64,000 bases of DNA from Candidatus Bathyarchaeota archaeon (GTDB lineage: Archaea > Thermoproteota > Bathyarchaeia > Bathyarchaeales > Bathycorpusculaceae), in NCBI GenBank assembly GCA_963775465.1, contig CAVZIW010000004.1, positions 1 through 64,000 on the forward strand. The letters run 5' to 3'. Below, piece by piece: positions 1,026-17,652 of the stretch. Numbering within the stretch: the stretch's first letter is position 1; each line of letters begins with the position of its first letter. A program made the translations under genes and the position numbers. The notes below the pieces were generated by a model. The model searched no databases. It was not told where the DNA came from and was given only the letters and a program-made list of their open reading frames with translations.

Positions 1026-3698
1026 ATGCAAATAAGCAATAAAAAAACCATTTCTATAATAACCCTGATCTTACTGATGACAACCAGTTTTCAACTAGCT
1101 TTGATTCCCTCAACAAATGCGCATACACCTCCATGGTCAGTTCCAACGTACATGTACGTTAATGTTTCACCTAACCCCACTGGAGTTGGGCAGGAAGTTA
1201 ACATTAACTTCTGGCTCAATACCCCTCCGCCAACAGCAATAGCCCCTCCATACCCGGACTTCTGGCAAAACCTAACGGTTGTGGTAAAAACTCCTGACGG
1301 AAAAACTCAAACGCTTGGACCTTTCACTTCGGATACTACTGGAGGATCGTACACAACTTACACACCTAATGTTGTAGGCAATTACACTTTTCAGTCGTTC
1401 TTCAGCGGACAAACCTTAAACCCCAACCCGCCTCCTGGAACCCGACCTAGCGCAGCTGCAGGCGATTATTATCAACCCAGCGAGAGCAAAATAGTTACAC
1501 TGTTAGTGCAGGAGGAACCAATACTAGAGCCACCTGTAAACCCATATCCAACAGAATACTGGACGCGCCCAATCTATGGCAACAACAACAACTGGTACAC
1601 AATCGGCGGAAATTGGCTTCATCATGACACTAGAGGAACTTACAATGCTACTGGAAGCTACGCACCTTACACATTAGCCCCGAAGACAGCGCACATTTTG
1701 TGGACTAAGGTCGAGGCGTTCGGAGGTATAATGGGAGGCGAATTCGGCGGCGACCTAGACGCCAACTATTATTCAACTAGACAATACGAAACAATGTTCC
1801 AACCGATAGTTATCAATGGTATACTCTATTACACTGAATTTCCAGGGTCTGTAACTTATCCCTCCGGTAATGTTGCACTTGACCTGCGGACTGGAGAAAC
1901 GGTATGGACTTCGAGTTACCCACAAATGCTGCCATCAACTCCAATAACTCCCACGGATACAGTGCCAACTGCTGGCGCAAGTACAACTCTGACATATGGA
2001 CAAATACTCGATTACTATTCAATCAACCAGTACGGTGGTCTTGCGTACCTTTGGAGCACTGGAACCCCTGCAATTGTTGCGTCCGCTACTAAGATTCAAA
2101 CTGGAACAACCACGTACAACATGTTTGACGCTAAGAGTGGAAACTATTTATTGAGCATCGCAAACTGCACTGCATTTAATGCTGTTACTCAAGACGACAA
2201 AGGAAATTTGATTGGCTACTATGTAAACAATAGTATTCCTACCGCTCCAACGCTGAACCAGTGGAACTCTACCAAGGCCATCCTGAAGTATAATAATTTA
2301 GGTTTGTTCCAAATTCTTGGTCTGGAGATGTGGAGCCCCCCGAAAGGCGCCATTATTCCGTTTAGCGCAGGAATAGAATGGACAATACCGTTAGCAAATA
2401 ACATTTCAGGGAACCCCATAACGCTCAGCTACAGCGGTCTATCTAACAATGTAATACTCATGTCACAATACAGCAGTACAGGCGGTGGACTCGCTTTCCA
2501 GAGCGGATGGATAATTGAAGCAGCATATGATGCAGTCAAAGGCCAACTTCTATGGGGACCAATCAATCGAACTGAAAATGTTGGCACAAGAGTTTCTTAC
2601 GGCACTACAGGCAACGGCAATCAGGGCTATGCCATCGGAGATGGTGCTTGGGTAGAAACCGACCTCAACGCGGAGACAGTTACTGGTTACAACCTCCTTA
2701 CAGGCGAGAAGATATGGGGACCAGAAAAGTTACCAAATGCTCATCCTTTCACTAGTTTCGGCGTGCAGCAAATTGTCGCAAACGGAACAATCTACATCTG
2801 GACTTTTGGAGGAGACGTCTACGCTATCAATATTAAGACTGGCGACATCAAATGGGAATATCATTCACCATCGACAGGTAGCGAAAACCCATACGGTACA
2901 CGGGCTTTTTGGAGTAGTGGAGGAAGAGGAGTACTCGCTGATGGCTTGCTCTTCCTTGCTGAAGGACACGAATTCAATCCACCCTTGTATCATGGAACGC
3001 ATTTGCAAGCATTTGACATAAACACAGGGCAGATAGTATGGAACGTAACTGGCATGTTCGTTAACGGCGGCAAAGCAATCGCAGACGGAATCTTGGTAGG
3101 TGTAAACGCGTATGACAATCAGATATACGCTTTTGGCAAAGGACCGAGTAAGACAACTGTTACTGCGCCTAGCGTGGGAGTGACAACCTCGTCACCAATT
3201 ACTATCACGGGTTCAGTAATTGACATCTCTGCTGGCTCGAAGCAACAAGTTGTTGCAGCGAACTTTCCAAACGGTCTTCCATGCGTATCGGATGCAAGCA
3301 TGAGCAAGTTTATGGAAGCTGTCTACATGCAACAACCTATGCCAATCGATGTTTCTGGTGTCAAAATTGATATAAGCGTCGTTGATTCCAACGGAAATTG
3401 GAGAGAAATCGGTTCCACTACAAGCAATGCCATGGGTACTTACGGCTTCACGTGGACACCTGACATACCCGGAGATTACACAATTATCGCTACATTCGAA
3501 GGAACAGGTTCATACTACGGGTCTTCCGCCCAAACATACTTCCACGCAAGCGAACAAACGTCTTCAACTCCAACCGCTACAACTCAAGCAGACCTAGCAA
3601 CCATAGGAGACATAGTGACTTACTTGGCTATTGGAGTAATCGCAATAATCATTTCAATAGCTATAGTTGGCTTTCTCTTGCTTAGGAAAAGACCATAA
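1026..3698 (+). CDS. Secreted, C-terminally anchored PQQ-repeat beta-propeller protein with Ig-like domains
   Basis: Signal peptide; repeated ALDLRTGETVW/AINIKTGDIKW/AFDINTGQIVW PQQ motifs; Thr-rich linker, TM helix and RKRP tail. Confidence 0.85.
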   Translation: MQISNKKTISIITLILLMTTSFQLALIPSTNAHTPPWSVPTYMYVNVSPNPTGVGQEVNINFWLNTPPPTAIAPPYPDFWQNLTVVVKTPDGKTQTLGPFTSDTTGGSYTTYTPNVVGNYTFQSFFSGQTLNPNPPPGTRPSAAAGDYYQPSESKIVTLLVQEEPILEPPVNPYPTEYWTRPIYGNNNNWYTIGGNWLHHDTRGTYNATGSYAPYTLAPKTAHILWTKVEAFGGIMGGEFGGDLDANYYSTRQYETMFQPIVINGILYYTEFPGSVTYPSGNVALDLRTGETVWTSSYPQMLPSTPITPTDTVPTAGASTTLTYGQILDYYSINQYGGLAYLWSTGTPAIVASATKIQTGTTTYNMFDAKSGNYLLSIANCTAFNAVTQDDKGNLIGYYVNNSIPTAPTLNQWNSTKAILKYNNLGLFQILGLEMWSPPKGAIIPFSAGIEWTIPLANNISGNPITLSYSGLSNNVILMSQYSSTGGGLAFQSGWIIEAAYDAVKGQLLWGPINRTENVGTRVSYGTTGNGNQGYAIGDGAWVETDLNAETVTGYNLLTGEKIWGPEKLPNAHPFTSFGVQQIVANGTIYIWTFGGDVYAINIKTGDIKWEYHSPSTGSENPYGTRAFWSSGGRGVLADGLLFLAEGHEFNPPLYHGTHLQAFDINTGQIVWNVTGMFVNGGKAIADGILVGVNAYDNQIYAFGKGPSKTTVTAPSVGVTTSSPITITGSVIDISAGSKQQVVAANFPNGLPCVSDASMSKFMEAVYMQQPMPIDVSGVKIDISVVDSNGNWREIGSTTSNAMGTYGFTWTPDIPGDYTIIATFEGTGSYYGSSAQTYFHASEQTSSTPTATTQADLATIGDIVTYLAIGVIAIIISIAIVGFLLLRKRP

Positions 3699-3711
3699 AA
3701 AATCATCCACT

Positions 3712-3746
3712 ACCCTTTCCTTTTTTTAATTTCTGAATCTTCAGAA
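3712..3746. terminator. T-rich tract plus TTCTGAA-TC-TTCAGAA hairpin between convergent genes
   Basis: T run near 3721-3727 and 7-bp inverted repeat at 3731-3746. Confidence 0.5.
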
Positions 3747-3747
3747 T

Positions 3748-4152
3748 TTATTTTCTTCGGGATAGAGTTACCGTTATTCTGTTTCGGCTAAGGCTTTTGC
3801 GTAGTTCATTGTTGATTCTTGTGTTTTCTCGCCCTCGGCTTGCATGACCAAAACGCGTTATCTTCCAACCTTTGAGGTTTCCTCGAATGATTTGTGGGTT
3901 GCTTGTGACTAACAGAAAGGGCAGTTTTGTTTGGGAACAGTAGAGGTCCGCTATGGAGTTTAGGAATCGTTTGCCTATGCCTATGCCTTGATAATCTGGT
4001 AACACTACTAAGCGACTTACTCGATAATACTTAGTTTTCATTTTGGTGCATGCTACTGCCATGAATGCTATGGGCTTGTTTTGATAGAGTGCAACATAGC
4101 AGCGAACACCTGCACCTAAACTGCCGTTCAGATAATGATATTGCCGAAACAT
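3748..4152 (-). CDS. GNAT acetyltransferase domain, probably the C-terminal part of a frameshifted ABC-ATPase-GNAT fusion
   Basis: RVSRLVVLPDYQGIGIG acetyl-CoA motif A; frame stays open upstream to the A7 run at 4209-4215 (RPPIKLSVYRCGNNLWQMFRQYHYLN). Confidence 0.85.
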   Translation of the reverse strand: MFRQYHYLNGSLGAGVRCYVALYQNKPIAFMAVACTKMKTKYYRVSRLVVLPDYQGIGIGKRFLNSIADLYCSQTKLPFLLVTSNPQIIRGNLKGWKITRFGHASRGRENTRINNELRKSLSRNRITVTLSRRK

Positions 4153-4808
4153 CTGCCATAGGTTGTTGCCGCACCGATAAACGCTGAGTTTAATGGGCGG
4201 CCTGACTCTTTTTTTCGACTAAACTCCATAGTGTCAGTGCAGAACACCCAATCAGGATCCAGCCAATCCACAACATCATAGTGGCAAGTAACAGCTATGA
4301 ACTTCCTTGTCGATCTGCGAACTGCCTTGCTAATGGCAAAAGCACTGACTTTAGCGATTTCTCGATCCACAACTGAAGTAAACTCATCGAAGACTACCAG
4401 TTGCTTGTCCAAGGATAGAGCACGAGCAATATCCACTCGCATCTTCTCACCTTGGCTGAGACAGTCATAGCTTTTTAGCCAATCTGGAGGAGACGCAAAA
4501 CCAACACTGCAAAGCATATGCGTGATCTCATTAGTTTCTAATTCTTTAGGAAAATCATCAAGAACACACTTACTGTTGTAATCAAAGCCTTGGATATAGG
4601 ATTCAGAGAAGAGTTTTTTGGCTATGCTTGTTTTACCTGAACCACTGCGCCCAACAATCACGCCTATTTGCCAGTCAAAATCCTCAAGCGGCAAATGACC
4701 CTTAAACCGCTTTTCCAACTTAACATCGTTTAGCGTGTAGCTTCCTACAATGCTATGTGCTCTAAAGGAGTCAGATCCTTCCCAACGTTTTATAATGTCA
4801 AAATCCGT
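4128..4808 (-). CDS. Soluble ABC-type ATPase (phage/MGE type, no TM partner)
   Basis: Walker A GRSGSGKT, signature LSQGE, Walker B VVFDEF, H-loop VTCH; frame open from ACG at 4808 (TDFDIIKRWEG...) although the first canonical start is TTG at 4718. Confidence 0.85.
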   Translation of the reverse strand, partial: TDFDIIKRWEGSDSFRAHSIVGSYTLNDVKLEKRFKGHLPLEDFDWQIGVIVGRSGSGKTSIAKKLFSESYIQGFDYNSKCVLDDFPKELETNEITHMLCSVGFASPPDWLKSYDCLSQGEKMRVDIARALSLDKQLVVFDEFTSVVDREIAKVSAFAISKAVRRSTRKFIAVTCHYDVVDWLDPDWVFCTDTMEFSRKKESGRPLNSAFIGAATTYGRCFGNIII

Positions 4809-5362
4809 AGCTTATAACCCTCCAACTTTAACTTTTCATACTTAGCTTTCTGGTCAGCTTCATCTTTGCACTCAACAATTAACTCGTAAGTTCCAGGAAT
4901 AGAAAAAGAAATATCACGATCATCCACCTCAAAAGGAAGCTTCTCCCCAACGGATTCGAGGAGCGCCTTCAACTCCTCCTTCTCGCCATCCTCAACAATA
5001 CGCAAATACTCAGCACTGTCCAACTCTATGTTGTGTTTACCTCTCAGCTTGTTTAGCACCTGCCGCAGCAATCGCCGGTCAACATCTTTAACGGGCAAAC
5101 GGATTACGCTGCATTCAGTCATGCCAAGCTCCTTCATGGCGGTAACACGCTGCTGCCCATCAGCAACCAAAAGCTCACTGTTAGTTACTACGGGAACGAT
5201 GTCACCCCATCTCTTAATTGAAGCCTTCAATCGGTCAAGCTGCACAAGGCTCATCATATTGGGATTGTCTTGGTCAAATTTGAGATCACTGATTTTCACG
5301 CGTTCCGACATCGGAATCGGAATTTCTTGGTCTCGCTCGGTTTCTACTTGTCGATGGCTCAT
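4790..5362 (-). CDS. ParB/Sulfiredoxin N-terminal-domain protein
   Basis: KISDLKFDQDNPN...LKASIKRWGDIVPVV...VADGQQR ParB-N motif; C-terminal YELIVECKDEADQ...GYKLRILTL overlapping the ATPase frame. Confidence 0.8.
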   Translation of the reverse strand: MSHRQVETERDQEIPIPMSERVKISDLKFDQDNPNMMSLVQLDRLKASIKRWGDIVPVVTNSELLVADGQQRVTAMKELGMTECSVIRLPVKDVDRRLLRQVLNKLRGKHNIELDSAEYLRIVEDGEKEELKALLESVGEKLPFEVDDRDISFSIPGTYELIVECKDEADQKAKYEKLKLEGYKLRILTL

Positions 5363-6153
5363 ATTTTCGGATTCTCCGTAACATTTTCGGCAGTCGATGA
5401 TTGATCAATTTGGACACTTTGAGGATTCTTCTTAAACCACTCGCATGGCTCCGAGCAAATAGGACATTTTTCTTTAAGGTAAATTGAGTTACGTGCATCG
5501 ATCTCTGCGTTTTTCGCTTGTTCTTGTTGTTCTTCTAACTCGTCTTGCCTAGCTTGCTCGGGTGTCCTGTTAGCGATAAACTGCTGTATGTCCTCAGTTG
5601 TTTTGAAAACATGATGTTCTTCACAGTAATGCTCAAAACTCTTTGGAGTAAATAGGTCATGATTCCAAGCTGCATAGACGGGTGCCAAAAGCCTTTCTTG
5701 TTCGCCTTCACACAGCTCCCAATAGCCAGGCGTGCTAAAGATCTCTTCTTCAGCGTCGTATTGCTCTTTAAACTTGCGGGTTTCTTCTATAAGCCAATAA
5801 AACCGAGTGTAGAATACCCAATTAGCCATAGGGTCTTTATACGTTACAAAAGCATCCGTGAAGACTTGGAAAATATCCAGTATCCTAGCCATAAAGCGGC
5901 GGTTCGCTGCGTCCACAAGTGCCTGGTCATCTGTTGATAACGGATTATAGGTGGTGTCTCCGCGGTCTTTGGCTGCCTGCAATTCATCGGCATGGTATTG
6001 CAAGATTTGGGTTGCGCGTCTGTGTAATTCGTTTTCTGCTTCATTTAACTCTGCGTCTCCATTGTCCCATGTTATTCTTGTCGTGCCCTCTTTTGGGAGT
6101 TCAGGTAAAACATTTTTTTCCAATAAATGCAGTTTCCTGCTTAAAACGTTCAT
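5359..6153 (-). CDS. Hypothetical protein with C-terminal CxxC..C motif (mobile-element-like)
   Basis: 264-aa ORF coupled by 4-bp overlaps to both neighbours; CPICSEPC. Confidence 0.7.
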   Translation of the reverse strand: MNVLSRKLHLLEKNVLPELPKEGTTRITWDNGDAELNEAENELHRRATQILQYHADELQAAKDRGDTTYNPLSTDDQALVDAANRRFMARILDIFQVFTDAFVTYKDPMANWVFYTRFYWLIEETRKFKEQYDAEEEIFSTPGYWELCEGEQERLLAPVYAAWNHDLFTPKSFEHYCEEHHVFKTTEDIQQFIANRTPEQARQDELEEQQEQAKNAEIDARNSIYLKEKCPICSEPCEWFKKNPQSVQIDQSSTAENVTENPKI

Positions 6154-6446
6154 TTCTTCTTGTCCTCCGGTTTCGGTATTAGGATGCTGTTCTTGAGCTT
6201 CTCCTCTAACGTTAACACCCGAAGCTCCAACTCCTCATCCTTAAGCAATGGACCATAGGCTGAGACTGCTGAAACCAAAACTCGCGCCCACCCCTGCTTA
6301 GCTTTGTCGCTATTTCCGCCATTATGAATTTTTTTATGGGAGAGACTTAAAACACCGTCTAAAACGCGAAATAACGTGTTTCTGCGCTCCTTCGCGGAGC
6401 GGTTTAATGACGGTTTCTTGCCGGTTTTAACTTCAACTTCACTCAA
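6150..6446 (-). CDS. Small helical hypothetical protein, first gene of the MGE-like operon
   Basis: 98 aa; ELELRVLTLEEKLK coiled tail; overlaps the next start. Confidence 0.6.
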   Translation of the reverse strand: MSEVEVKTGKKPSLNRSAKERRNTLFRVLDGVLSLSHKKIHNGGNSDKAKQGWARVLVSAVSAYGPLLKDEELELRVLTLEEKLKNSILIPKPEDKKK

Positions 6447-6622
6447 ACTGCACTATGCCTTCCTGTTTTTGGCTCCAACACCAATGGAGAAAAGACAACG
6501 CAAAGCGAGTTAGCTTTCTATAGACAACAAAAAACAAGACAACGATTGGTATATTGTAGCATTGAGCAAATAACTTTTTTGGCTATTACAATAAAAAAAG
6601 GGAAAGGTTTTGGTTTTGATGT

Positions 6623-9064
6623 TTATGGCCGTTTTTTCAGTAGCAGCAACGCGAGCAAAGCAATGACAACTGCCATGGCAACGATGAGCCCTATTGACAT
6701 CGGCAAGAAGTAAAGATCAGCCATCGAAGCAGGCGTTGATGTTTGTGCCGAAGTAGCTTGAGATGCTTCTTCTACGCTCATGTAGGTCCGCGCGGATGAA
6801 CTTCCATAGGAGTTGGAACCCTCGAATGTTGCGATAACTGTGTATTGACCTGAAATGTCAGGCTTCCAAGTATATCCAAATGCACCCGTAATGTCAGAAG
6901 TGACTGTACCGATGTTTCTGTAGTTGTTATTGGAATCAATAACATCTAGTCTTACTTGAACGCCCTTTGCGTCGGTGGGAATGGTTTTTTGGGCATAAAT
7001 GTAATCCATCCACGCGCCCATGCTCTCGTCAGAAATAGCTGGCGTGTCCTTGGTACCAGCAGACTGGTCGGTTACTGTGCCAGTTATCACTACGCTCTGA
7101 CCTAGCGTCAACGCAGTCTGTGGTGCTGAAACGGTGATCTTGCTTGGGCCTTTGCCTATGGAAAACATCTGGTTAGTATAGGCGTTGTATCCTACTATGT
7201 ATCCGTCGGCCATAGATGATAGTACGTCTAGTCCTGTAAGACTCCAAATACCTTCTCCTGTTGTTTCATTGATAGCAAAAAGCCTTTGATTTCTAATCAG
7301 CGGAGATGTCGGTGAGTGATCACCTGTTGCTGAGTAAACTACGCCGCCTGCAATTATTATGCCATGGAACCATGGCCATGTGCCATAGGGAGTTTCCGTT
7401 GTATTATCTTTTCCACTGCTGAATTTCCAGATTTCTTTACCGTTGGCGATATCAAACGCATGTATATAACCGTCGTATGCCCCGACAAAAAGTTTGTTAT
7501 TTGCAATAAGGACCATATGTCTCGTTGTAAAATCGCCCCAAGGATAAACCAGCGGATCACTGACCCACTTCTTAATCCCGGTACTGGCATCGTAGCCAAC
7601 GAAGCTCATGCTCAACGTATCCCAATCAGCGTACATTCCGTCGCCAAAGGCGCAAACCCAACCATCGTTTGAGTGTTCGGTCGTCCGGTTGAAAGCCCAT
7701 AGCAGTTGACCTGTTTTTGTACTGTAACCTACATGTAATGGTTCATCAGCACGCGGAAAACCAGCTATTCTTTGTACGGCGTCTCCAGCAAAAGCAACCA
7801 GTACATCGCCCACGATTGCCTGAATCTGTGGGTAGTAAACAGCACCTAGTGAAGTCGCTACCTCTATTGGCACAGTCGTATTCCATTCTATGCCCTTGCG
7901 CCAGTCAAAAGTTCCTGACCTAGGACGCCACTCCAACAGGCTAGCGCCCTCAATCGATGCTGGGCTACCCGGATATTGCGGCAACATTCCTTCGTTTTGG
8001 AATGCTTTTGTTGAGTTCCACATTGCCAACCAACCGTTCGCCCCATCTAAGATATAAACATAGATTGTTCCGTCATCCCCGCGTAAAATCGTTCCTGTTG
8101 ATGCATTCGCAAAGCTGCAGGTTAGTTGCCCCGTGAAAGCATCGTACATTTTATAAGTTGAGCCCATGCTCCATAGGTATGCGTTAACACCGAATTGATT
8201 GCCTGAATTGAAATTGAAGAGTTGACCACATCTCAAAGTGTCATCCATAACCCGCCAGAGTTCTTCTCCAGTGCGTAAATCAACGGCGGCAAATCCCTGC
8301 GTTAAAGAAGAGCCTATTCGAATATTGTAATAGAGTACCCCATTGATGATTATCGTAAGTGGTAGTTTGGTTTCGTAGGAAAGACCAGTGTAATATTCTG
8401 TTCCTCCAAATTCCCCCCCTACAAGACCTCCAAAATCAAGTGACTTAGTCCACATTAAGTGAGGCGCCAATGCCGCTTGACTGTAGGGATTGTAAGCACA
8501 AGATGGGAACCAAGTGGCGTAAGTAGAGTTATAGCTGAGTTCTAGCCAATTGCCCGAGACAGATGACCATAGTCTATTCTCAGCGCTAATGGGGCGTGTC
8601 CAATAATCAGTAGGTAAAGGTTCATTCGGCCAGTCTGGAATCAGGTCATTTTGAACTACAAGAGTAATTGCAGGAGACGTGGATGACTTAAGGTTTACAT
8701 CGTTTGACGCAAAGTATTCTCCAGGATAGGAAACCACGAAGGTATAATTACCGATCTGGGCAGGGGTGTACGTGAAAAAGTTCATGCCATGTGTGTAGGT
8801 ATTCATCGTTCTGCTTTCGGTTGTTCCATCAGGTCCTGTGATCGTCACTTTCAGGTTATGGTAAACATCGGTGCCAGTAGGCAGTTCAGGTTGAACCCAC
8901 ACATTAACAAGGGCTCCTTGTCCAACGCCTACGGGATTAGGTTCTACAGCACAGAAAGCCGCGGTGTTTAGCTCTTTAGCGTAAGCTGCAGGAAAACCCG
9001 TCATTAATATTGAAGATGACAAAATCAAAAGAACTGCAATTGCAAAAACCTTGTTCTTTAACAT
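6623..9064 (-). CDS. Secreted, C-terminally anchored PQQ-repeat beta-propeller protein (paralog of 1026..3698)
   Basis: Signal peptide; PNPVGVGQ, YWTRPI, AVDLRTGEELW, AFDIANGKEIW, GKGPSK; TM helix and KKRP tail. Confidence 0.85.
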   Translation of the reverse strand: MLKNKVFAIAVLLILSSSILMTGFPAAYAKELNTAAFCAVEPNPVGVGQGALVNVWVQPELPTGTDVYHNLKVTITGPDGTTESRTMNTYTHGMNFFTYTPAQIGNYTFVVSYPGEYFASNDVNLKSSTSPAITLVVQNDLIPDWPNEPLPTDYWTRPISAENRLWSSVSGNWLELSYNSTYATWFPSCAYNPYSQAALAPHLMWTKSLDFGGLVGGEFGGTEYYTGLSYETKLPLTIIINGVLYYNIRIGSSLTQGFAAVDLRTGEELWRVMDDTLRCGQLFNFNSGNQFGVNAYLWSMGSTYKMYDAFTGQLTCSFANASTGTILRGDDGTIYVYILDGANGWLAMWNSTKAFQNEGMLPQYPGSPASIEGASLLEWRPRSGTFDWRKGIEWNTTVPIEVATSLGAVYYPQIQAIVGDVLVAFAGDAVQRIAGFPRADEPLHVGYSTKTGQLLWAFNRTTEHSNDGWVCAFGDGMYADWDTLSMSFVGYDASTGIKKWVSDPLVYPWGDFTTRHMVLIANNKLFVGAYDGYIHAFDIANGKEIWKFSSGKDNTTETPYGTWPWFHGIIIAGGVVYSATGDHSPTSPLIRNQRLFAINETTGEGIWSLTGLDVLSSMADGYIVGYNAYTNQMFSIGKGPSKITVSAPQTALTLGQSVVITGTVTDQSAGTKDTPAISDESMGAWMDYIYAQKTIPTDAKGVQVRLDVIDSNNNYRNIGTVTSDITGAFGYTWKPDISGQYTVIATFEGSNSYGSSSARTYMSVEEASQATSAQTSTPASMADLYFLPMSIGLIVAMAVVIALLALLLLKKRP

Positions 9065-9225: not shown

Positions 9226-10059
9226 TTGCGATTTGAAGAAGAAGTCAGCATTTTTCGTGAGCTAGGGGTCACTCGGATTCAAACTGAACTCTATTTAACC
9301 CTTCTGAAAATTGGAAAAACGGATGGAAAAACACTCACGAGACGAACAAATCTACCCAGGCCAGAAGTCTACAGAACACTTGAAGAGTTGCAGGAAAAGG
9401 GATTAGTTGAGAAAGAAATAACCCAACCGTATACCTTTACAGCAATACCAATTCAACAAGGGCTGCAAATGTTAATGACGCAGAAGTTTGAGAAGTTCAA
9501 CACAATTCAAGACAAAATCGAAAACCTTCTTCAGAAAATAGAAAACAAGAAAACGGAAAAAGTTCTAGATGAGCAAGAGTATCAACTTATTATGGTTGAC
9601 CATAAAGAAAGGATAATCCAAAAGATGAGACAACAGCATGAAGATGCACAAAATGAGGTGGTTGTCCTTTCCAACCCACAGAGGTGGCTGCTAATCCTTC
9701 ACTACTGTCTGGAGAATTATGAAAGAGCATTGGAGAGAGGCGTCTGGTATCGAGTTGTCATAGAAAACTCTGAAAACGGAATCGCCTCTCAGAAAAATGT
9801 GCAGATGCTGCTGTCAAGACCGAATTTCGAAATGAAGTTGTCAAACGGGTCATTCTGCACCAGCGCCGCCCTTTTTGATCGAAAAGAAGCCACATTTGCT
9901 TTTCATCCGTCAAGAGCCTTAGGAGAATCCCCAATTATATTGACCAATCATCCCAGCTTCCTGACAATGCTTCAAGAACACTTTGAGAATGTTTGGAAAA
10001 AAGCAAGCAGATTCAAAGTTCAAAACGAAGATGCAGACAATGAAGTTTTCGCTACTTGA
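9226..10059 (+). CDS. TrmB-family transcriptional regulator
   Basis: RPEVYRTLEELQEKGLVE wHTH; TNHPSF...HFENVW C-terminus; paralog of 44..862. Confidence 0.85.
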   Translation: MRFEEEVSIFRELGVTRIQTELYLTLLKIGKTDGKTLTRRTNLPRPEVYRTLEELQEKGLVEKEITQPYTFTAIPIQQGLQMLMTQKFEKFNTIQDKIENLLQKIENKKTEKVLDEQEYQLIMVDHKERIIQKMRQQHEDAQNEVVVLSNPQRWLLILHYCLENYERALERGVWYRVVIENSENGIASQKNVQMLLSRPNFEMKLSNGSFCTSAALFDRKEATFAFHPSRALGESPIILTNHPSFLTMLQEHFENVWKKASRFKVQNEDADNEVFAT

Positions 10060-13071: not shown

Positions 13072-14496
13072 ATGCCAGCAACCGATAACCAAGGCGATGA
13101 TTCAGAAATTCTTGAGAAATCACCCACTGGGATTCAAGGTTTCGACGAAATAACCTTTGGCGGATTACCCAAGGGTCGTCCCACAATAATTATTGGCGGT
13201 CCTGGAAGCGGCAAAACCCTTTTCGGGATGGAATTTCTCGTTAATGGCGCCATAAAATATGGCGAACCCGGCGTCTTCATAGCGTTTGAGGAAACAGAGC
13301 GAGAACTTGAAAAGAATACGGTTTCTTTGGGTTTTGGCGTTAAGAGCCTTGTTCAACAAAAAAAATTATACATAGATCATGTGCGTGTTGAACGAAGTGA
13401 GATAGAGGAGACCGGTGAGTATGATCTTGAAGGACTATTCATTCGGCTAGGTTCAGCTATAGATTCTGTAGGCGCCAAAAGAATTGTCCTTGATACTGTT
13501 GAGTCTCTTTTCTCCGGATTGAGTAATGAAGCTATTTTGCGTGCTGAATTGCGCCGACTGTTCGGTTGGCTCAAAGACAAGGGTATGACGGCAGTTATAA
13601 CTGCTGAGAGAGGAACAGAAACGATGACTCGCTATGGACTCGAAGAATACGTCTCTGACTGCGTCATCATTCTTGACCATCGCGTCAATAGCCAAATATC
13701 TACAAGGCGTTTGAGAGTTGTCAAATATAGAGGTTCCATGCATGGCACAAACGAATACCCATTCATAATTGATAATAATGGGTTTCAGCTGCTACCCATA
13801 ACGTCTGCTGGACTGGATTATTCTACTTCAAAAGAACGTTATTCAACTGGCATACCACAGCTTGATGCTATGCTTAGCCAGCAAGGTTTTTACAGAGGCA
13901 GTACGATAATGGTTTCTGGATCGGCTGGAACTGGTAAAACAAGCATTGCGTGGGCTTTTGCAAATTCGGTCTGTCAAAAAGGTCAGCGATGCTTATATTT
14001 TGCTCTTGAAGAATCACCAAGCCAAATCCTTCGAAACATGGAATCTATCGGGTTAAAACTTGAACCTTACATCAAAAAGGGAATTTTACAGATCCATTCA
14101 AATCGTCCAACCCTGTATGGGCTGGAAACTCACCTTTCAATTATGCAAAGAGCAATAGACGAGGTCAAGCCAAGCGTAGTCATAATTGATCCAATTTCCA
14201 ACTTAATTAACGTCGGCATCGAATCCGATGTTAAATCAATGCTAACCCGTATGATCGATTATCTGAAAACAAAGCAAATCACAACCCTTTTTACCTCTCT
14301 GAGAGGGCTTGACAAAAAAGGTGAATCCTCCGAGGTCATTTCCTCCTGGATTGATACCTGGATTTCTTTAAGCACTAAAAAACTGAAAGATGACAATGTA
14401 AAAACAAGAATCCGCATAATAAAATCCAGAGGAATGGCGCATGCAAAGAAGATCAAAGAACTACAATTGACCGATCAAGGAATAAAAATAGTTTAG
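13072..14496 (+). CDS. kaiC: Double-domain KaiC ATPase/kinase
   Basis: Two RecA-like domains: GGPGSGKT/AFEE/KYRG and GSAGTGKT/ALEE/KSRG; ISSWID at the phosphosite position. Confidence 0.93.
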   Translation: MPATDNQGDDSEILEKSPTGIQGFDEITFGGLPKGRPTIIIGGPGSGKTLFGMEFLVNGAIKYGEPGVFIAFEETERELEKNTVSLGFGVKSLVQQKKLYIDHVRVERSEIEETGEYDLEGLFIRLGSAIDSVGAKRIVLDTVESLFSGLSNEAILRAELRRLFGWLKDKGMTAVITAERGTETMTRYGLEEYVSDCVIILDHRVNSQISTRRLRVVKYRGSMHGTNEYPFIIDNNGFQLLPITSAGLDYSTSKERYSTGIPQLDAMLSQQGFYRGSTIMVSGSAGTGKTSIAWAFANSVCQKGQRCLYFALEESPSQILRNMESIGLKLEPYIKKGILQIHSNRPTLYGLETHLSIMQRAIDEVKPSVVIIDPISNLINVGIESDVKSMLTRMIDYLKTKQITTLFTSLRGLDKKGESSEVISSWIDTWISLSTKKLKDDNVKTRIRIIKSRGMAHAKKIKELQLTDQGIKIV

Positions 14497-14832
14497 GTGG
14501 TTAAAATGAGCAAAGAATATGCGCAAAATAATGAACCAGAAGAGAATGCTGAATTCTATGTTTTAAGACTATACGTCGCTGGGCAAACGCCAAAATCTAT
14601 GCAAGCTTTTGAGAATCTCAAAAAAATCTCTGAACAACATTTGAAAGGAAGATATAAAATTGAAGTTATAGATTTAGTAAAGAATCCTCGGTTAGCCAAG
14701 GATGACCAGATTTTAGCTATTCCAACTCTTGTTCGTAAATTACCTGAGCCTTTGAAGAAAATTATTGGTGACCTCTCAAATACTGAAAGAGTTCTCGTGG
14801 GATTAGATATTCGACCCAAAAAAAATTTATAG
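14497..14832 (+). CDS. kaiB: KaiB family protein
   Basis: [12 protein letters not shown]...IEVIDL...[23 protein letters not shown]. Confidence 0.95.
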
Positions 14833-14864
14833 ACAAAAAGAGTTGATAAGGGGCGGGAAGAATT

Positions 14865-15230
14865 TTGAGCACTAAAAAAGAAGACTCCCAAGATTCTACT
14901 CAAGATTTTGAAAAAGCCGCAGAAAAGAATAGAGAAGAAAAGTATGTTTTGCGCTTGTATGTCGCTGGGATGTCGCCTCGGTCAGTTAGGGCTATTGAGA
15001 ACATTCGAAGGATTTGTGAAGACAGCCTGAAGGGTCGATATGAACTTGAGGTGATAGATGTTTATCAGCAGCCTGAATACGCTAAAAAAGAGCAGCTTCT
15101 TGCAGCGCCTACCTTGATAAAGAAACTACCTCTACCTCTTAGACGGCTTATTGGCGACATGTCAAATAAGGAGCGTATTCTGGTTGGTTTAGATTTAATG
15201 CCAAAGAATCAACCTGAAAAAAAGAGGTAG
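14865..15230 (+). CDS. kaiB: Second KaiB family protein
   Basis: LRLYVAGMSPRS...LEVIDV...LLAAPTLIKKLPLPLRRLIGDMS. Confidence 0.93.
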   Translation: MSTKKEDSQDSTQDFEKAAEKNREEKYVLRLYVAGMSPRSVRAIENIRRICEDSLKGRYELEVIDVYQQPEYAKKEQLLAAPTLIKKLPLPLRRLIGDMSNKERILVGLDLMPKNQPEKKR

Positions 15231-15243
15231 AAGCAAAACACCG

Positions 15244-17652
15244 ATGAAAACAAAAGATAAAGCAGTCGATATTCTCGCTGAAAATGAGACCTTGCGTCAG
15301 CAGTTAGCTGAAGCGCAGGAGACGCTGAGGGCTATCCAGCATGGAGAAGTTGACGCCTTAGTCGTTTCTACGCCCGAAGGCGAGCAAGTTTATTCAATTA
15401 CAGGCGCAGAAAAACCCTATCGCGTTTTAATTGAAGAAATGAAAGAGGGCGCAGTTATGCTCTCCGAAAACAACATTATTCTTTACTGCAACATTGGATT
15501 TGCAGAGATCATCAAGCAACCACTTGACAAGATCATTGGAACCAACATTCAAGAAATAATCTCCCCAACTCATAGCTCAGTTTTTGAAGAATTGATGCGT
15601 TCTGGTCGCAAGGGTGAAGGGTCGAAAGTTGGAGAAGTTAGTCTTCAAACTGCAGATAAAGCTACCGTGCCAGCATACATGTCAGTTAATTCTTTTCAAA
15701 AAGATGATGTAAAAACCACTTTTTTGGTTTTCACTGATTTAACCCGGCATATGCAGGAAGACATCAAAAGATATACCAAAGGTTTGGAACTGGAAATTAG
15801 TAAACGCGAGAGAGTTGAACAAGCATTAAGACAAGCAGAAGAACGCTTCCGAATTGCTTTGAAGAACGCTCCTGTTTCGGTAGCTGCCCAAGACCTTGAA
15901 CACAAATATATATGGGCATATAACCAAAAAACCTCAACCCCAGAGGAAATTATTGGGAAAACAGATAGGGATATTTTCAAACCGCAAGAAGCGGACCACG
16001 TAGACCAAATCAAGGAACGGGTAATTAGAGAGGGCGCCGAGATTCGGGAGCAGATGTGGCTTGATAGACCTTCTGGGAAGATTTATCTTGGTATTACATG
16101 GTCACCTCTAAGGGATAGTAAGGGAAAAATTGTTGGAGTCACAAGTGCCACTGTTGACTTAACTGCATTAAAAATGGCAGAAGAAGCACTAAAAGAAAGT
16201 GAAGCTAAGTTTAAGACGTTAGCTGAGAATGCTCCTGATGCTATCATGCTTTTTGATCCAGAATTGCGGGTGCTCTATTTGAACCCTGTGGATTTGGCTG
16301 CCACAGGCAAAACTCTTGACGAGTTTATTGGAAAGACTAATGAAGAAATGGGCATGCCGACAGAACTCTGCAAATTATGGAATAGGATGTTTGAGAGGGC
16401 AAAAGCAGAAAAACAAGTTCAACAAGCAGAATTTGACTTTAATACACCAATCGGGATTAGATCATTCAATTTGCGAATTGTACCTGAATTTGCTGAAGAC
16501 GGCTCTTTAAAATCTTACGTAGGTATCTCCCATGATATTACTGAGCTTAAGAAAGCTGAAAAAATACTCAAAGAAAACGAACATCTCTACCGCACTGTAT
16601 TTGACAATAGTCAAGATGGATTCCAGTTAATTGAGTTAATTTACGATAAAGATGGGAATCCAATAGATCATAAGTTCTTGAAAGTTAACCATGCTTACGA
16701 AGTTATAATAGGTGTTAAAGCAGACGACATTCTTGACAAAACTGCAAGATACATTTCTCCAAACGTTGAACCTCATTGGCTTGATGTTCCTGATAGAGTC
16801 GCTAAGACTGGGTTATCAGAGCATGTCGAGCTGTATAACAAGGATATTGGCAAGTGGTTAGATTGTTTCTATTTCCCCTATTCCAAAAATGTCGTTGGGA
16901 CACTTTTTAGGGATATTACTGGACGGAAAGAATTGGAGAAACAGCTGCAAGATTCTGAGCGATTGGCCGCTATCGGTGCAACAGCGGGCATGGTTGGACA
17001 TGACATTCGCAATCCATTGCAGGCCATTATTGGAGATTTATACCTTGCTAAAGAAGAAATAAGCGAGATCCCAAATAATGAAGGCAAGCGAGCGATGCAT
17101 GAGACCTTGGCGGAAATTGAGAAAAACGTTGATTACATTAACAAGATTATAGCTGACCTGCAAGATTTTGCAAGAGCAATTACTCCAACTGCTCAAGTGG
17201 TCGATTTAGAAGACCTCTGTGAAGAGGTGCTTTTTAAGAATGGCGTTCCAGAAAATATTAAAGCCTCTTGTAGAATAGAGCCTGAAGCAAAAATTTTAAT
17301 GTCTGACTTAGCGTTGCTAAAACGTATTCTTATCAATCTTACTTCTAACGCTGTGCAGGCTATGCCGCAAGGCGGAGAACTTTCTATTAAAGCTTACAAG
17401 AATGCAGGTGACGTTGTTATCACTGTTGAAGATACTGGTGTTGGTATTGCTGGTGAAGTGAAAGAAAAGTTGTTTACACCAATGTTCACTACCAAAGCTA
17501 AAGGTCAAGGTTTTGGATTAGCTGTAGTTAAACGTATGACTGAGGCGTTGGGTGGAGAGGTCACTTTTGAGAGTGAAGTTGGCAAGGGAACAAAGTTTAT
17601 TGTGCGTTTACCCCCCCCCAAAGAAGTAAACGGTAAATGGACCTACAAATAA
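15244..17652 (+). CDS. Cytoplasmic multi-PAS sensor histidine kinase
   Basis: About four PAS/PAC repeats; H-box HDIRNPLQAI; NAVQAM, DTGVGI, FTTK, GQGFGL boxes. Confidence 0.92.
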   Translation: MKTKDKAVDILAENETLRQQLAEAQETLRAIQHGEVDALVVSTPEGEQVYSITGAEKPYRVLIEEMKEGAVMLSENNIILYCNIGFAEIIKQPLDKIIGTNIQEIISPTHSSVFEELMRSGRKGEGSKVGEVSLQTADKATVPAYMSVNSFQKDDVKTTFLVFTDLTRHMQEDIKRYTKGLELEISKRERVEQALRQAEERFRIALKNAPVSVAAQDLEHKYIWAYNQKTSTPEEIIGKTDRDIFKPQEADHVDQIKERVIREGAEIREQMWLDRPSGKIYLGITWSPLRDSKGKIVGVTSATVDLTALKMAEEALKESEAKFKTLAENAPDAIMLFDPELRVLYLNPVDLAATGKTLDEFIGKTNEEMGMPTELCKLWNRMFERAKAEKQVQQAEFDFNTPIGIRSFNLRIVPEFAEDGSLKSYVGISHDITELKKAEKILKENEHLYRTVFDNSQDGFQLIELIYDKDGNPIDHKFLKVNHAYEVIIGVKADDILDKTARYISPNVEPHWLDVPDRVAKTGLSEHVELYNKDIGKWLDCFYFPYSKNVVGTLFRDITGRKELEKQLQDSERLAAIGATAGMVGHDIRNPLQAIIGDLYLAKEEISEIPNNEGKRAMHETLAEIEKNVDYINKIIADLQDFARAITPTAQVVDLEDLCEEVLFKNGVPENIKASCRIEPEAKILMSDLALLKRILINLTSNAVQAMPQGGELSIKAYKNAGDVVITVEDTGVGIAGEVKEKLFTPMFTTKAKGQGFGLAVVKRMTEALGGEVTFESEVGKGTKFIVRLPPPKEVNGKWTYK

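Follow-up and report, generated by a model that had tools for sequence, protein, structure and literature searches.

The window (the whole stretch of DNA analysed here, 64,000 nucleotides (nt) of contig CAVZIW010000004.1, assembly GCA_963775465.1, Candidatus Bathyarchaeota archaeon) possesses a cassette of five open reading frames (ORFs), all encoded on the minus strand (3748-6446). Its 3' end consists of genes for a ParB/Srx-like protein, a soluble ABC ATPase and a GNAT acyltransferase, and the last two appear to be halves of a single gene that is read across two frames (Table 1). A preliminary description of this locus proposed a coupled operon of five genes ending in these three and lacking a transporter permease, and all of the ORFs and domains were found. 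Gene overlaps were found for orf98/orf264 and orf264/ParB (4 nt each) and for ABC/GNAT (25 nt, in different frames). The ParB and ABC genes do not overlap when the latter is called from its first TTG, which leaves a distance of 71 nt, but they do when the conserved ABC frame is considered, which extends 22 nt into the ParB gene.

Table 1. Coordinates of the cassette genes and of the elements at their junctions in the window (aa, amino acids).
Feature	Position	Strand	Description
orf98	6150-6446	-	98 aa; small protein, first gene of the cassette
orf264	5359-6153	-	264 aa
ParB/Srx-like ORF	4790-5362	-	190 aa
ABC ATPase ORF as called	4128-4718	-	196 aa; TTG at 4718; 0-frame stop TGA at 4128-4130
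ABC ATPase, conserved 0 frame	4128-4811	-	N-terminal 31 codons reach 4811
GNAT ORF as called	3748-4152	-	134 aa; ATG at 4150-4152
GNAT, -1 frame	3748-4215	-	open from the A run to TAA at 3748-3750
A7 run	4209-4215	-	slippery heptamer A_AAA_AAA in the ATPase frame; proposed -1 shift site
Predicted hairpin	4168-4201	-	GC-rich outer stem and AU-rich inner extension
Conserved upstream part of the repeated unit	6447-6554	-	candidate promoter/operator; three GTTGTCT repeats

The window ATPase matched the Pfam family ABC_tran (1.3e-9), and a fold search retrieved ABC nucleotide-binding domains at 1.9e-8, while the window GNAT matched Acetyltransf_7 (1.7e-8) and Acetyltransf_1 (6.7e-6). According to the family alignment A1, which comprises 25 natural in-frame ATPase-GNAT proteins, the Walker A, signature, Walker B and H-loop positions are invariant (G54-K60, S119/G121, D142-E143, and H177). 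The acyl-CoA motif of the GNAT (R..V.P..QG.G.G) is also kept (R68, V70, P73, Q76, G77, and G79 in alignment A2). Both ORFs matched one fused phage family of 357 residues, phrog_11143, in the order of its domains, the ATPase at residues 33-201 (3.6e-57) and the GNAT at residues 217-338 (4.6e-23). No membrane gene was found inside the window cassette, no permease partner or fused transmembrane domain was found inside it, next to it or in its relatives, and an identity as ABC transporter was rejected for lack of a permease. In databases these genes are called 'ABC transporter' and 'hypothetical protein', labels behind which the enzyme is hidden.

At the run of seven adenines (A7), the GNAT lies in the frame -1 to that of the ATPase. 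The ATPase (0) frame ends 29 codons past the run. In nearly all copies, a stop codon blocks the -1 frame one codon ahead of the run, and from the run on this frame is open. Distant viral loci (41-53% identity) carry both domains in one frame in every case (43/43). Past the junction, alignment A1 contains P205 (conserved in at least 90%) as well as the invariant W219, F222 and His-Tyr-Leu triplet (H226-L228), and in the window all these residues are encoded by the -1 frame after the run and before the stop of the 0 frame, the tryptophan preceding the ATG. The window -1 frame product was modelled with AlphaFold2 (pLDDT 88.2, pTM 0.80); in the model, strand beta1 comprises residues 11-15 and helix alpha1 residues 17-26, and the methionine of the called ORF is residue 22. 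A GNAT started at the ATG would thus miss beta1 and the invariant tryptophan, because both precede that codon. As shown by this comparison, the ATPase and GNAT ORFs correspond to a single gene whose two parts are separated by a conserved change to the -1 frame. A single ATPase-GNAT polypeptide from the window copy would require the proposed shift, which the comparison supports.

The junction was surveyed at 124 loci, 121 of which were analysable; the set combines this genome and 18 relatives with contigs from IMG/VR (21) and GTDB (80). A -1 shift is needed at 111 of the 121, eight are in frame (owing to secondary indels or an A10 run) and two need +1. Counted as distinct junction sequences, 98 of 107 are -1 (78 with A7, 18 with A9, one with A8, and one without a run), and 104 of the 107 contain 7-10 A's in a row; where both halves are intact, the -1 layout is found at 79 of 82 distinct loci. 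In the viral contig L060, A10 replaces the A9 of its relatives, and an uninterrupted in-frame ATPase-GNAT of 361 aa is encoded. The loci span about 49 assemblies (by accession prefix), from differing assemblers as judged by contig names, together with 20 IMG/VR contigs that share the frame relation. Among the 1970 runs of at least seven A's in this genome, ten combine a long frame leading in and an early stop with a long frame leading out at -1, and two of these ten are cassette copies. On these grounds, sequencing or assembly error at the homopolymer was rejected. DNA-level phase variation was rejected as the main mechanism, since the run length is fixed per lineage and L060 is the sole in-frame run-length variant.

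A -1 GNAT frame is also seen in some homologues from Firmicutes phages, where the A run is replaced by T4-T5 runs (GGTTTTTC, TCTTTTAC). These homologues were found in Streptococcus prophage 315.4 (L038, about 5350-6000), Lactococcus P335 (L107), Oenococcus Vinitor-27 (L105) and L061, and are annotated as two genes ('ABC transporter' and hypothetical). The homologue of Javan420 (L106) was scored as +1 by the junction script.

In the 0 frame, the context of the window run (CG A_AAA_AAA G) fits the slippery heptamer X_XXY_YYZ. The predicted hairpin begins 7 nt after the run and has a single-sequence folding energy of -16.4 kcal/mol in the window, and the consensus of 61 distinct A7 sequences yields the same stem. 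Its outer seven pairs are never broken (two sequences have C changed to U, keeping a G-U pair), seven inner pairs are paired in 72-98% of the sequences with one-sided changes only, and the spacer between run and hairpin is the most variable part. The A9 group (15 distinct sequences folded) showed no consensus downstream structure, and Rfam gave no match in window positions 3600-6700. Among 62 distinct A7 sequences, third codon positions have a mean entropy of 1.33 bits (ATPase part) or 1.46 bits (GNAT part), and the twelve lowest 7-codon windows of the whole gene (about 0.3-0.5 bits) all lie at -15 to +29 of the run. Third-position entropy falls to zero at two triplets of codons, +12 to +20 and +39 to +47, which are the arms of the hairpin.

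Programmed -1 shifting on an A run is known from dnaX. Further cases are fucA1 of S. solfataricus (A-AAA-AAT), as given in an excerpt of PMC8211752, and the Mg-chelatase genes of Methanocaldococcus and bacteria (A_AAA_AAA), as given in an excerpt of PMC3711429. All of them share with the window an A-rich heptamer and in-frame homologues elsewhere, and the predicted hairpin and two proposed products of the window gene would match their nearby stem-loop and two products per gene. Unlike them, the present case concerns another gene family in Bathyarchaeia and their viruses, is supported by comparison only, and has two run lengths that coexist, A7 with a predicted hairpin and A9 without.

A different peculiarity is seen at the start of the ATPase, the first 31 residues of which are conserved family-wide, with one invariant arginine. 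In viral copies this conserved N-terminus starts with ATG, GTG or TTG, 22 nt within the ParB gene, whereas in the window and about 46 related loci the corresponding codon is GCT or ACT, and the next canonical start occurs at varying downstream positions. The conserved 31 codons in the window (4719-4811, minus strand) hold no ATG, GTG or TTG. Copies without the start are mostly free of the terminase gene TerL (27 without versus 3 with), while those with the start mostly have it (27 with versus 11 without). The 24 codons from the ParB stop to the first TTG of the window have a ratio of non-synonymous to synonymous substitution rates (dN/dS) of 0.083, versus 0.065 for the rest of the gene (34 distinct sequences). 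Inspection by eye revealed no convincing -1 slip site between the ParB and ATPase frames. The ATPase frame of the start-less copies seems to be entered by a non-standard translational route, as far as the conservation of these codons indicates.

This genome contains the cassette five times, on contigs C4 (the window), C5, C1, C6, and C12; the copies are 45-97% identical at the protein level, and each has 7 or 9 consecutive A's at its junction. The repeated DNA unit extends over about 3762-6554 (2.8 kb), and was 94%, 83%, and 77% identical to the C6, C1, and C5 copies, respectively (blastn); the span given in the preliminary description, 3748-5362, covers three genes. That description regarded the locus as part of an integrated element in an archaeal chromosome. 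The chromosomal setting was confirmed by ordinary chromosomal neighbours, and sequences related to the cassette come almost solely from metagenome-assembled genomes (MAGs) titled Candidatus Bathyarchaeota or Bathyarchaeia. The integrated element was not borne out, as no integrase, terminase or tRNA was found in the window, and a cassette present five times was found instead. A transposon-like element was likewise rejected, because the ends of the 2.8-kb unit, in an alignment of four copies, bear neither terminal inverted repeats nor target duplications, and no integrase, transposase or tRNA is nearby. No match to TerL, a TerS-like protein or portal was found near any of the five copies, so that they do not lie beside packaging genes, while TerL was present in 15 of the 80 GTDB loci.

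The five-gene form, with orf98 and orf264, was also found in 11 other MAG contigs with differing flanks. Comparison of the C4 and C5 copies gave dN/dS values of 0.127 (orf98), 0.116 (orf264), 0.053 (ParB), 0.049 (ATPase), and 0.112 (GNAT), which are rough ratios, dS being saturated (0.6-2.3). These values suggest that the chromosomal copies are under purifying selection. Of 36 other genomes of the genus, 18 have true homologues (E<1e-40), and at the same threshold there were none in the 24 genomes searched from other families of the order. According to a quick, weakly supported tree, the terminase-less chromosomal copies cluster apart from those linked to a terminase, this label needing 5 changes versus 26.6 in shuffles. 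Isolated GNAT fragments at C5:34052-34354 and C7:7327-7428 (70-75% identity), beside surface-protein genes, are remnants of further cassette copies. Contig C1 also contains a 3.6-kb block made only of homopolymers (C1:35638-39243; A922, T1403, A1281), probably a filled stretch or an artefact of the assembly.

The viral relatives of the cassette have a different neighbourhood. At the 21 IMG/VR loci nearest the window (52-78% ATPase identity), TerL lies within about 1.5 kb downstream in 19 and a portal gene is present in 14. The gene order of L060 is ParB-like, ATPase-GNAT, a 155-aa protein, TerL (Terminase_6N, 2.5e-6), and portal, and the order of ParB-like, ABC(-GNAT) and terminase was also found in Streptococcus prophage 315.4, Lactococcus P335, Streptococcus Javan420 and Gordonia Axumite. 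In a comparison with phage proteins, the window ATPase matched 80 records, at identities of up to 52%. A survey of neighbourhoods recovered the linkage to ParB and mobile genetic elements that had been expected, a ParB-like gene being present at 58 of 64 viral and 74 of 82 Bathyarchaeia loci, and a terminase gene on 19 of the 21 close viral contigs. The module is probably virus-derived, and in many bacterial phages, as in the tailed viruses of Bathyarchaeia, its relatives stand first in the block of DNA-packaging genes.

The window ParB-like protein matched the PHROGs families phrog_498 (3.5e-19) and phrog_620 (2.5e-15) and the NCBIfam family parB_part (TIGR00180, 7e-4). It had no match to Pfam ParB_N, GmrSD_N at 0.012 being the only Pfam hit, and the L060 orthologue scored 25.2 bits against ParB_N, slightly below the cut-off of 26.3. 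Alignment A3 reveals an N-terminal domain of ParB-N type (NPN ... DGQQR), in which both boxes of the ParB/Srx fold, NPx and G..R, are kept with N24 and G60 invariant, followed by a C-terminal domain that is small and conserved. By these sequence features, the 190-aa protein is assigned to the ParB/Srx N-terminal domain superfamily.

The phrog_11143-type family comprises 1166 clusters at 50% identity with E<=1e-30 to the profile. Nearly all of its best 150 representatives are single-frame proteins of 350-400 aa, and ten of the 150 are about 200 aa longer at the N-terminus. All three of the longer representatives tested contain the whole ParB-like partner N-terminally (hhalign probability 97.5%, 99.8%, and 99.5%), and Pfam ParB_N was recognised in just one of the ten. 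From these natural ParB-ABC-GNAT triple fusions it can be argued that the ParB-like protein and the enzyme work together; prediction of a complex between the ParB-like protein and ABC-GNAT gave a score of 0.00, which counts neither for nor against this. One family representative of 715 aa (P0056) carries an intein in its ATPase part (Hint, 5.9e-18, with a LAGLIDADG homing endonuclease).

Further neighbours of the viral relatives bear on the possible chemistry. Aspartate 1-decarboxylase PanD (2.6e-28) and a family III CoA-transferase (1.1e-10) follow ABC-GNAT in 10-11 bacterial-type viral loci, and in L067 the two genes (4699-5088 and 5171-5887) come directly after it. This suggests that they could make beta-alanyl-CoA as a tailored acyl donor, a context that fits such a donor better than plain protein acetylation. 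A literature search combining PanD, CoA-transferase, GNAT, phage and DNA modification found no paper, and neither did one on COG2401. Fusion to N6/N4 DNA methylases is seen in some of the partner ParB proteins (L081). In Streptococcus prophage 315.4, an ASCH-domain gene is located two genes downstream of the module; the ASCH protein YqfB is an N4-acetylcytidine amidohydrolase.

According to the part of PMC7824862 that cites Iyer, Zhang, Burroughs, and Aravind (2013), an uncharacterised acyl modification of a DNA base is predicted for the phage ABC-ATPase/GNAT family, to which the window ATPase and GNAT belong, as the preliminary description had proposed. Our literature searches found no experiment on DNA-base modification by this family. 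Acylation of nucleic acid, probably DNA, is the best-supported guess at its function, given the ParB linkage, the triple fusions, and the PanD and CoA-transferase neighbours. The window system has in common with the phrog_11143 phage system its protein family, its ParB-like partner and, in the viral relatives, the position beside the terminase. It differs in that the two halves of the window enzyme lie in different frames, which meet at a conserved A7 site, and in that the window copy is chromosomal, multi-copy, terminase-less, archaeal, and preceded by orf98 and orf264.

The GNAT had also been suspected to be Mom-like. Domain modelling gave a GNAT fold with confidence. Foldseek with the GNAT model retrieved generic GNATs (TM-score about 0.6), and the profile search likewise gave generic GNATs only (E>=0.002). 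Membership in the Mom family (PF25680) was rejected, as the window GNAT had no match at E<=1, whereas Mu Mom itself scored 2.4e-75; hhalign of alignment A2 versus Mu Mom gave a probability of 0.13% (E 0.43). Mom of phage Mu, a GNAT-fold enzyme that acylates adenine N6 in DNA, resembles the present system in superfamily, in being phage-borne, and in being late-expressed. Burkholderia phage phiE255 has a fused ABC-GNAT gene, together with a formyltransferase gene, after the tail-fibre genes, which is the position of mom in the Mu record. However, Mom has neither an ATPase domain nor a ParB partner, and its regulator is Com.

Two other groups of enzymes are comparable. TmcA and NAT10, which form N4-acetylcytidine (ac4C) in RNA, have a P-loop NTPase fused N-terminally to a nucleobase-modifying GNAT, an arrangement like the one proposed here, and TmcA (2zpa) ranked 7 in the fold search with the whole two-domain model (root-mean-square deviation 12.7). 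In contrast, the window ATPase is of the ABC class and not helicase-like, the window enzyme is without a tRNA-binding domain, and its partner and context point to DNA. Membership in this group was rejected on account of the ABC-type ATPase and of a NAT10 match in the PDB profile search that is weak (E 0.05) and covers 28 residues, confined to the acyl-CoA motif. ParB-dependent phage DNA-modifying T-dioxygenases are described in an excerpt of PMC13229309, and in these, as in the phrog_498 fusions of ParB-N with DNA methyltransferase, a ParB-like protein is paired with or fused to a post-replication DNA-modifying enzyme. The catalytic partner in the present module differs in being a predicted ATPase-acyltransferase.

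Taken together, the explanation that we prefer, at a probability of about 0.6, is a virus-derived module of a ParB-like protein and a recoded ABC-ATPase~GNAT that would acylate nucleic acid. At the A7 run, most ribosomes or RNA polymerases would lead to an end 29 codons on, giving a protein of the ATPase only, and a fraction would shift to -1, giving the full ATPase-GNAT enzyme that is single-frame in other viruses. In the A7 lineage this would be ribosomal -1 frameshifting on A_AAA_AAA, aided by the downstream hairpin, and in the hairpin-less A9 lineage transcriptional slippage may contribute or dominate. The ParB-like protein would bind DNA and NTP and bring or load the ATPase-GNAT, which would then transfer an acyl group from acyl-CoA to a base of a nucleic acid, most likely DNA, at the expense of ATP. 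Since the window copy belongs to a lineage that is terminase-less and kept by selection, it probably acts on the cell's own or incoming DNA, and not in virion packaging.

Recoding of some kind at the A run is considered highly probable, and several observations weigh against the details of the above explanation. The window hairpin is no stabler than shuffled sequences (z -0.98; 30 of 200 fold equally well), its stem is without any double compensatory change, and the invariance of the stem could stem, at least partly, from two overlapping translated frames. Within the 54 nt from the run to the ATG, the -1 frame has 3596 synonymous and 9454 non-synonymous codon differences versus 5368 and 8084 in the 0 frame, so that this count alone does not single out the -1 frame. 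A run of seven A's is short for efficient slippage, whether ribosomal or transcriptional. The higher synonymous count in the 0 frame also agrees with two separate proteins made without recoding, the ATPase ending at its own stop and the GNAT starting at the ATG (4152) or being coupled to the ATPase stop. The ATG is present in 67 of 107 distinct junctions, where a separately started, N-terminally shortened GNAT is accordingly possible, and phage records annotate two genes (P335 Orf24/Orf25; prophage 315.4 SpyM3_1235/1234). Yet this reading is very unlikely in our view: the ATG is absent from 40 of the 107 junctions, copy C12 has no start codon whatever in the -1 frame, the shortened GNAT would lose beta1 and the invariant tryptophan, the -1 frame is in nearly all copies closed just before the run and open after it, and fused homologues are the rule elsewhere. 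The same pure homopolymer of 7-10 A's at nearly all junctions would suit transcriptional slippage, in which RNA polymerase adds one A at the run and a share of the mRNAs encodes an in-frame fusion. The A9 lineage (18 distinct sequences), with no consensus structure downstream, and L060, where one added A yields a functional frame, point the same way, and insertion sequence (IS) elements use A/T runs for slippage, according to an excerpt of PMC1088944. On the other hand, the A7 lineage has a conserved element downstream of the run at a spacing typical of ribosomal -1 shifts, and the Firmicutes phage homologues keep the -1 layout with just T4-T5 runs. In addition, A7 is reportedly below the length at which such slippage becomes prominent in bacteria. 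Transcriptional slippage is hence judged rather unlikely as the general explanation, and for the window copy a ribosomal event is slightly favoured over a transcriptional one.

With regard to the target, DNA is put a little below even odds. The GNAT resembles generic GNATs only (RimI, Naa50, and SpeG), has no detectable relationship to Mom, and may take RNA or a DNA-bound protein as substrate instead. A protein (terminase, portal, or a chromatin protein) or ac4C-type RNA, as modified by TmcA/NAT10, would agree with structural neighbours that are protein and small-molecule acetyltransferases, with the alignment to TmcA, an ATPase-GNAT that acetylates tRNA cytidine, with the weak NAT10 match, and with the ASCH-domain gene of prophage 315.4. 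This alternative is somewhat unlikely, as the constant partner is a ParB/Srx DNA-binding NTPase that is even fused to the enzyme in some relatives, partner ParB proteins are in cases fused to DNA methyltransferases (L081; phrog_498), and the packaging-gene neighbourhood fits action on DNA. Finally, the window copy might be a decaying provirus remnant without present function. The lack of a terminase near any of the five copies, the extra stops and frame breaks borne by copies C6 and C1, and the absence of a canonical start codon for the conserved ATPase N-terminus in the window, which also counts against the preferred explanation, would all be expected of a remnant. Such decay is quite unlikely in view of the low C4 versus C5 ratios (0.05-0.13, dS saturated), the dN/dS of 0.065-0.10 over 34 distinct start-less copies, including the 24 codons before the first canonical start, and a layout that is unchanged in 79 of 82 distinct intact loci.

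A stronger form of the preferred, virus-derived acylation module can be conceived, in which the terminase-less lineage would be a domesticated DNA-acylation ('epigenetic' or defence) system of Bathyarchaeia that uses two non-standard decoding events for graded product amounts. The ATPase frame would be entered from the end of the ParB gene by a frameshift or an unconventional re-initiation that needs no canonical start codon, and the -1 shift would then lead into the GNAT frame. Forms with ParB, ATPase and ParB/ATPase/GNAT would in this way arise in graded amounts from one mRNA, as a counterpart of the triple fusions that occur naturally elsewhere. We consider this form speculative and unlikely.

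The first two genes of the cassette have no recognisable family. The orf98 product had no match in Pfam, PHROGs or NCBIfam, and the gene was found in 21 of 80 GTDB loci; orf264 had no match in the same three collections and an uninformative best score of 0.77 in the protein atlas, and was found in 13-14 loci. Upstream of orf98, three direct repeats of GTTGTCT (6493-6499, 6522-6528, and 6537-6543) occur within 51 nt and are retained in other cassette copies; the motif occurs 17 times in the window versus 7.8 expected. The repeat region could be an operator or a ParB-binding site, as its placement suggests.

The cassette is flanked by two PQQ-propeller surface-protein genes and TrmB-like regulators. 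The flanking genes (1026-3698, plus strand; 6623-9064, minus strand) encode large PQQ/BamB-like beta-propeller proteins that are secreted and anchored in the membrane by their C-terminus; roughly 50 paralogues of these proteins (28-47% identity, tblastn) are dispersed across the 2.4-Mb genome. TrmB-like regulator genes (44-862 and 9226-10059 in the window) adjoin several of these paralogues, both window copies included. A surface-protein gene lies within 5 kb in 16 of 80 loci, which is estimated to be about the chance level for a family of roughly 50 copies, and directly upstream in 6 of 14 five-gene loci, which may be orthologous. The wider surroundings are ordinary chromosome, with genes for KaiC, two KaiB, a PAS histidine kinase, ClpB and a methylpurine glycosylase. 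KaiC, the two KaiB and the multi-PAS histidine kinase form a cluster (13072-17652, plus strand) that is a circadian-clock-like signalling module in this archaeon.

What the present comparison adds is a putative, well-conserved -1 recoding site in an archaeal lineage and an apparently selected, multi-copy chromosomal offshoot of a viral module. According to an excerpt of PMC8211752, -1 frameshifting in Archaea has been demonstrated for one gene only. The slip site described here is kept across about a hundred diverged sequences, with L060 as a natural in-frame control, and recoding in an uncultured archaeal lineage thereby becomes directly testable with reporters. The ParB and ABC-GNAT module, with its 1166 clusters, is among the most widespread virus gene sets of predicted function only. 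Its multi-copy form in archaeal chromosomes, under purifying selection, suggests an activity useful beyond virion assembly, and the three-protein module offers a compact target for finding a possible new acyl mark on DNA.

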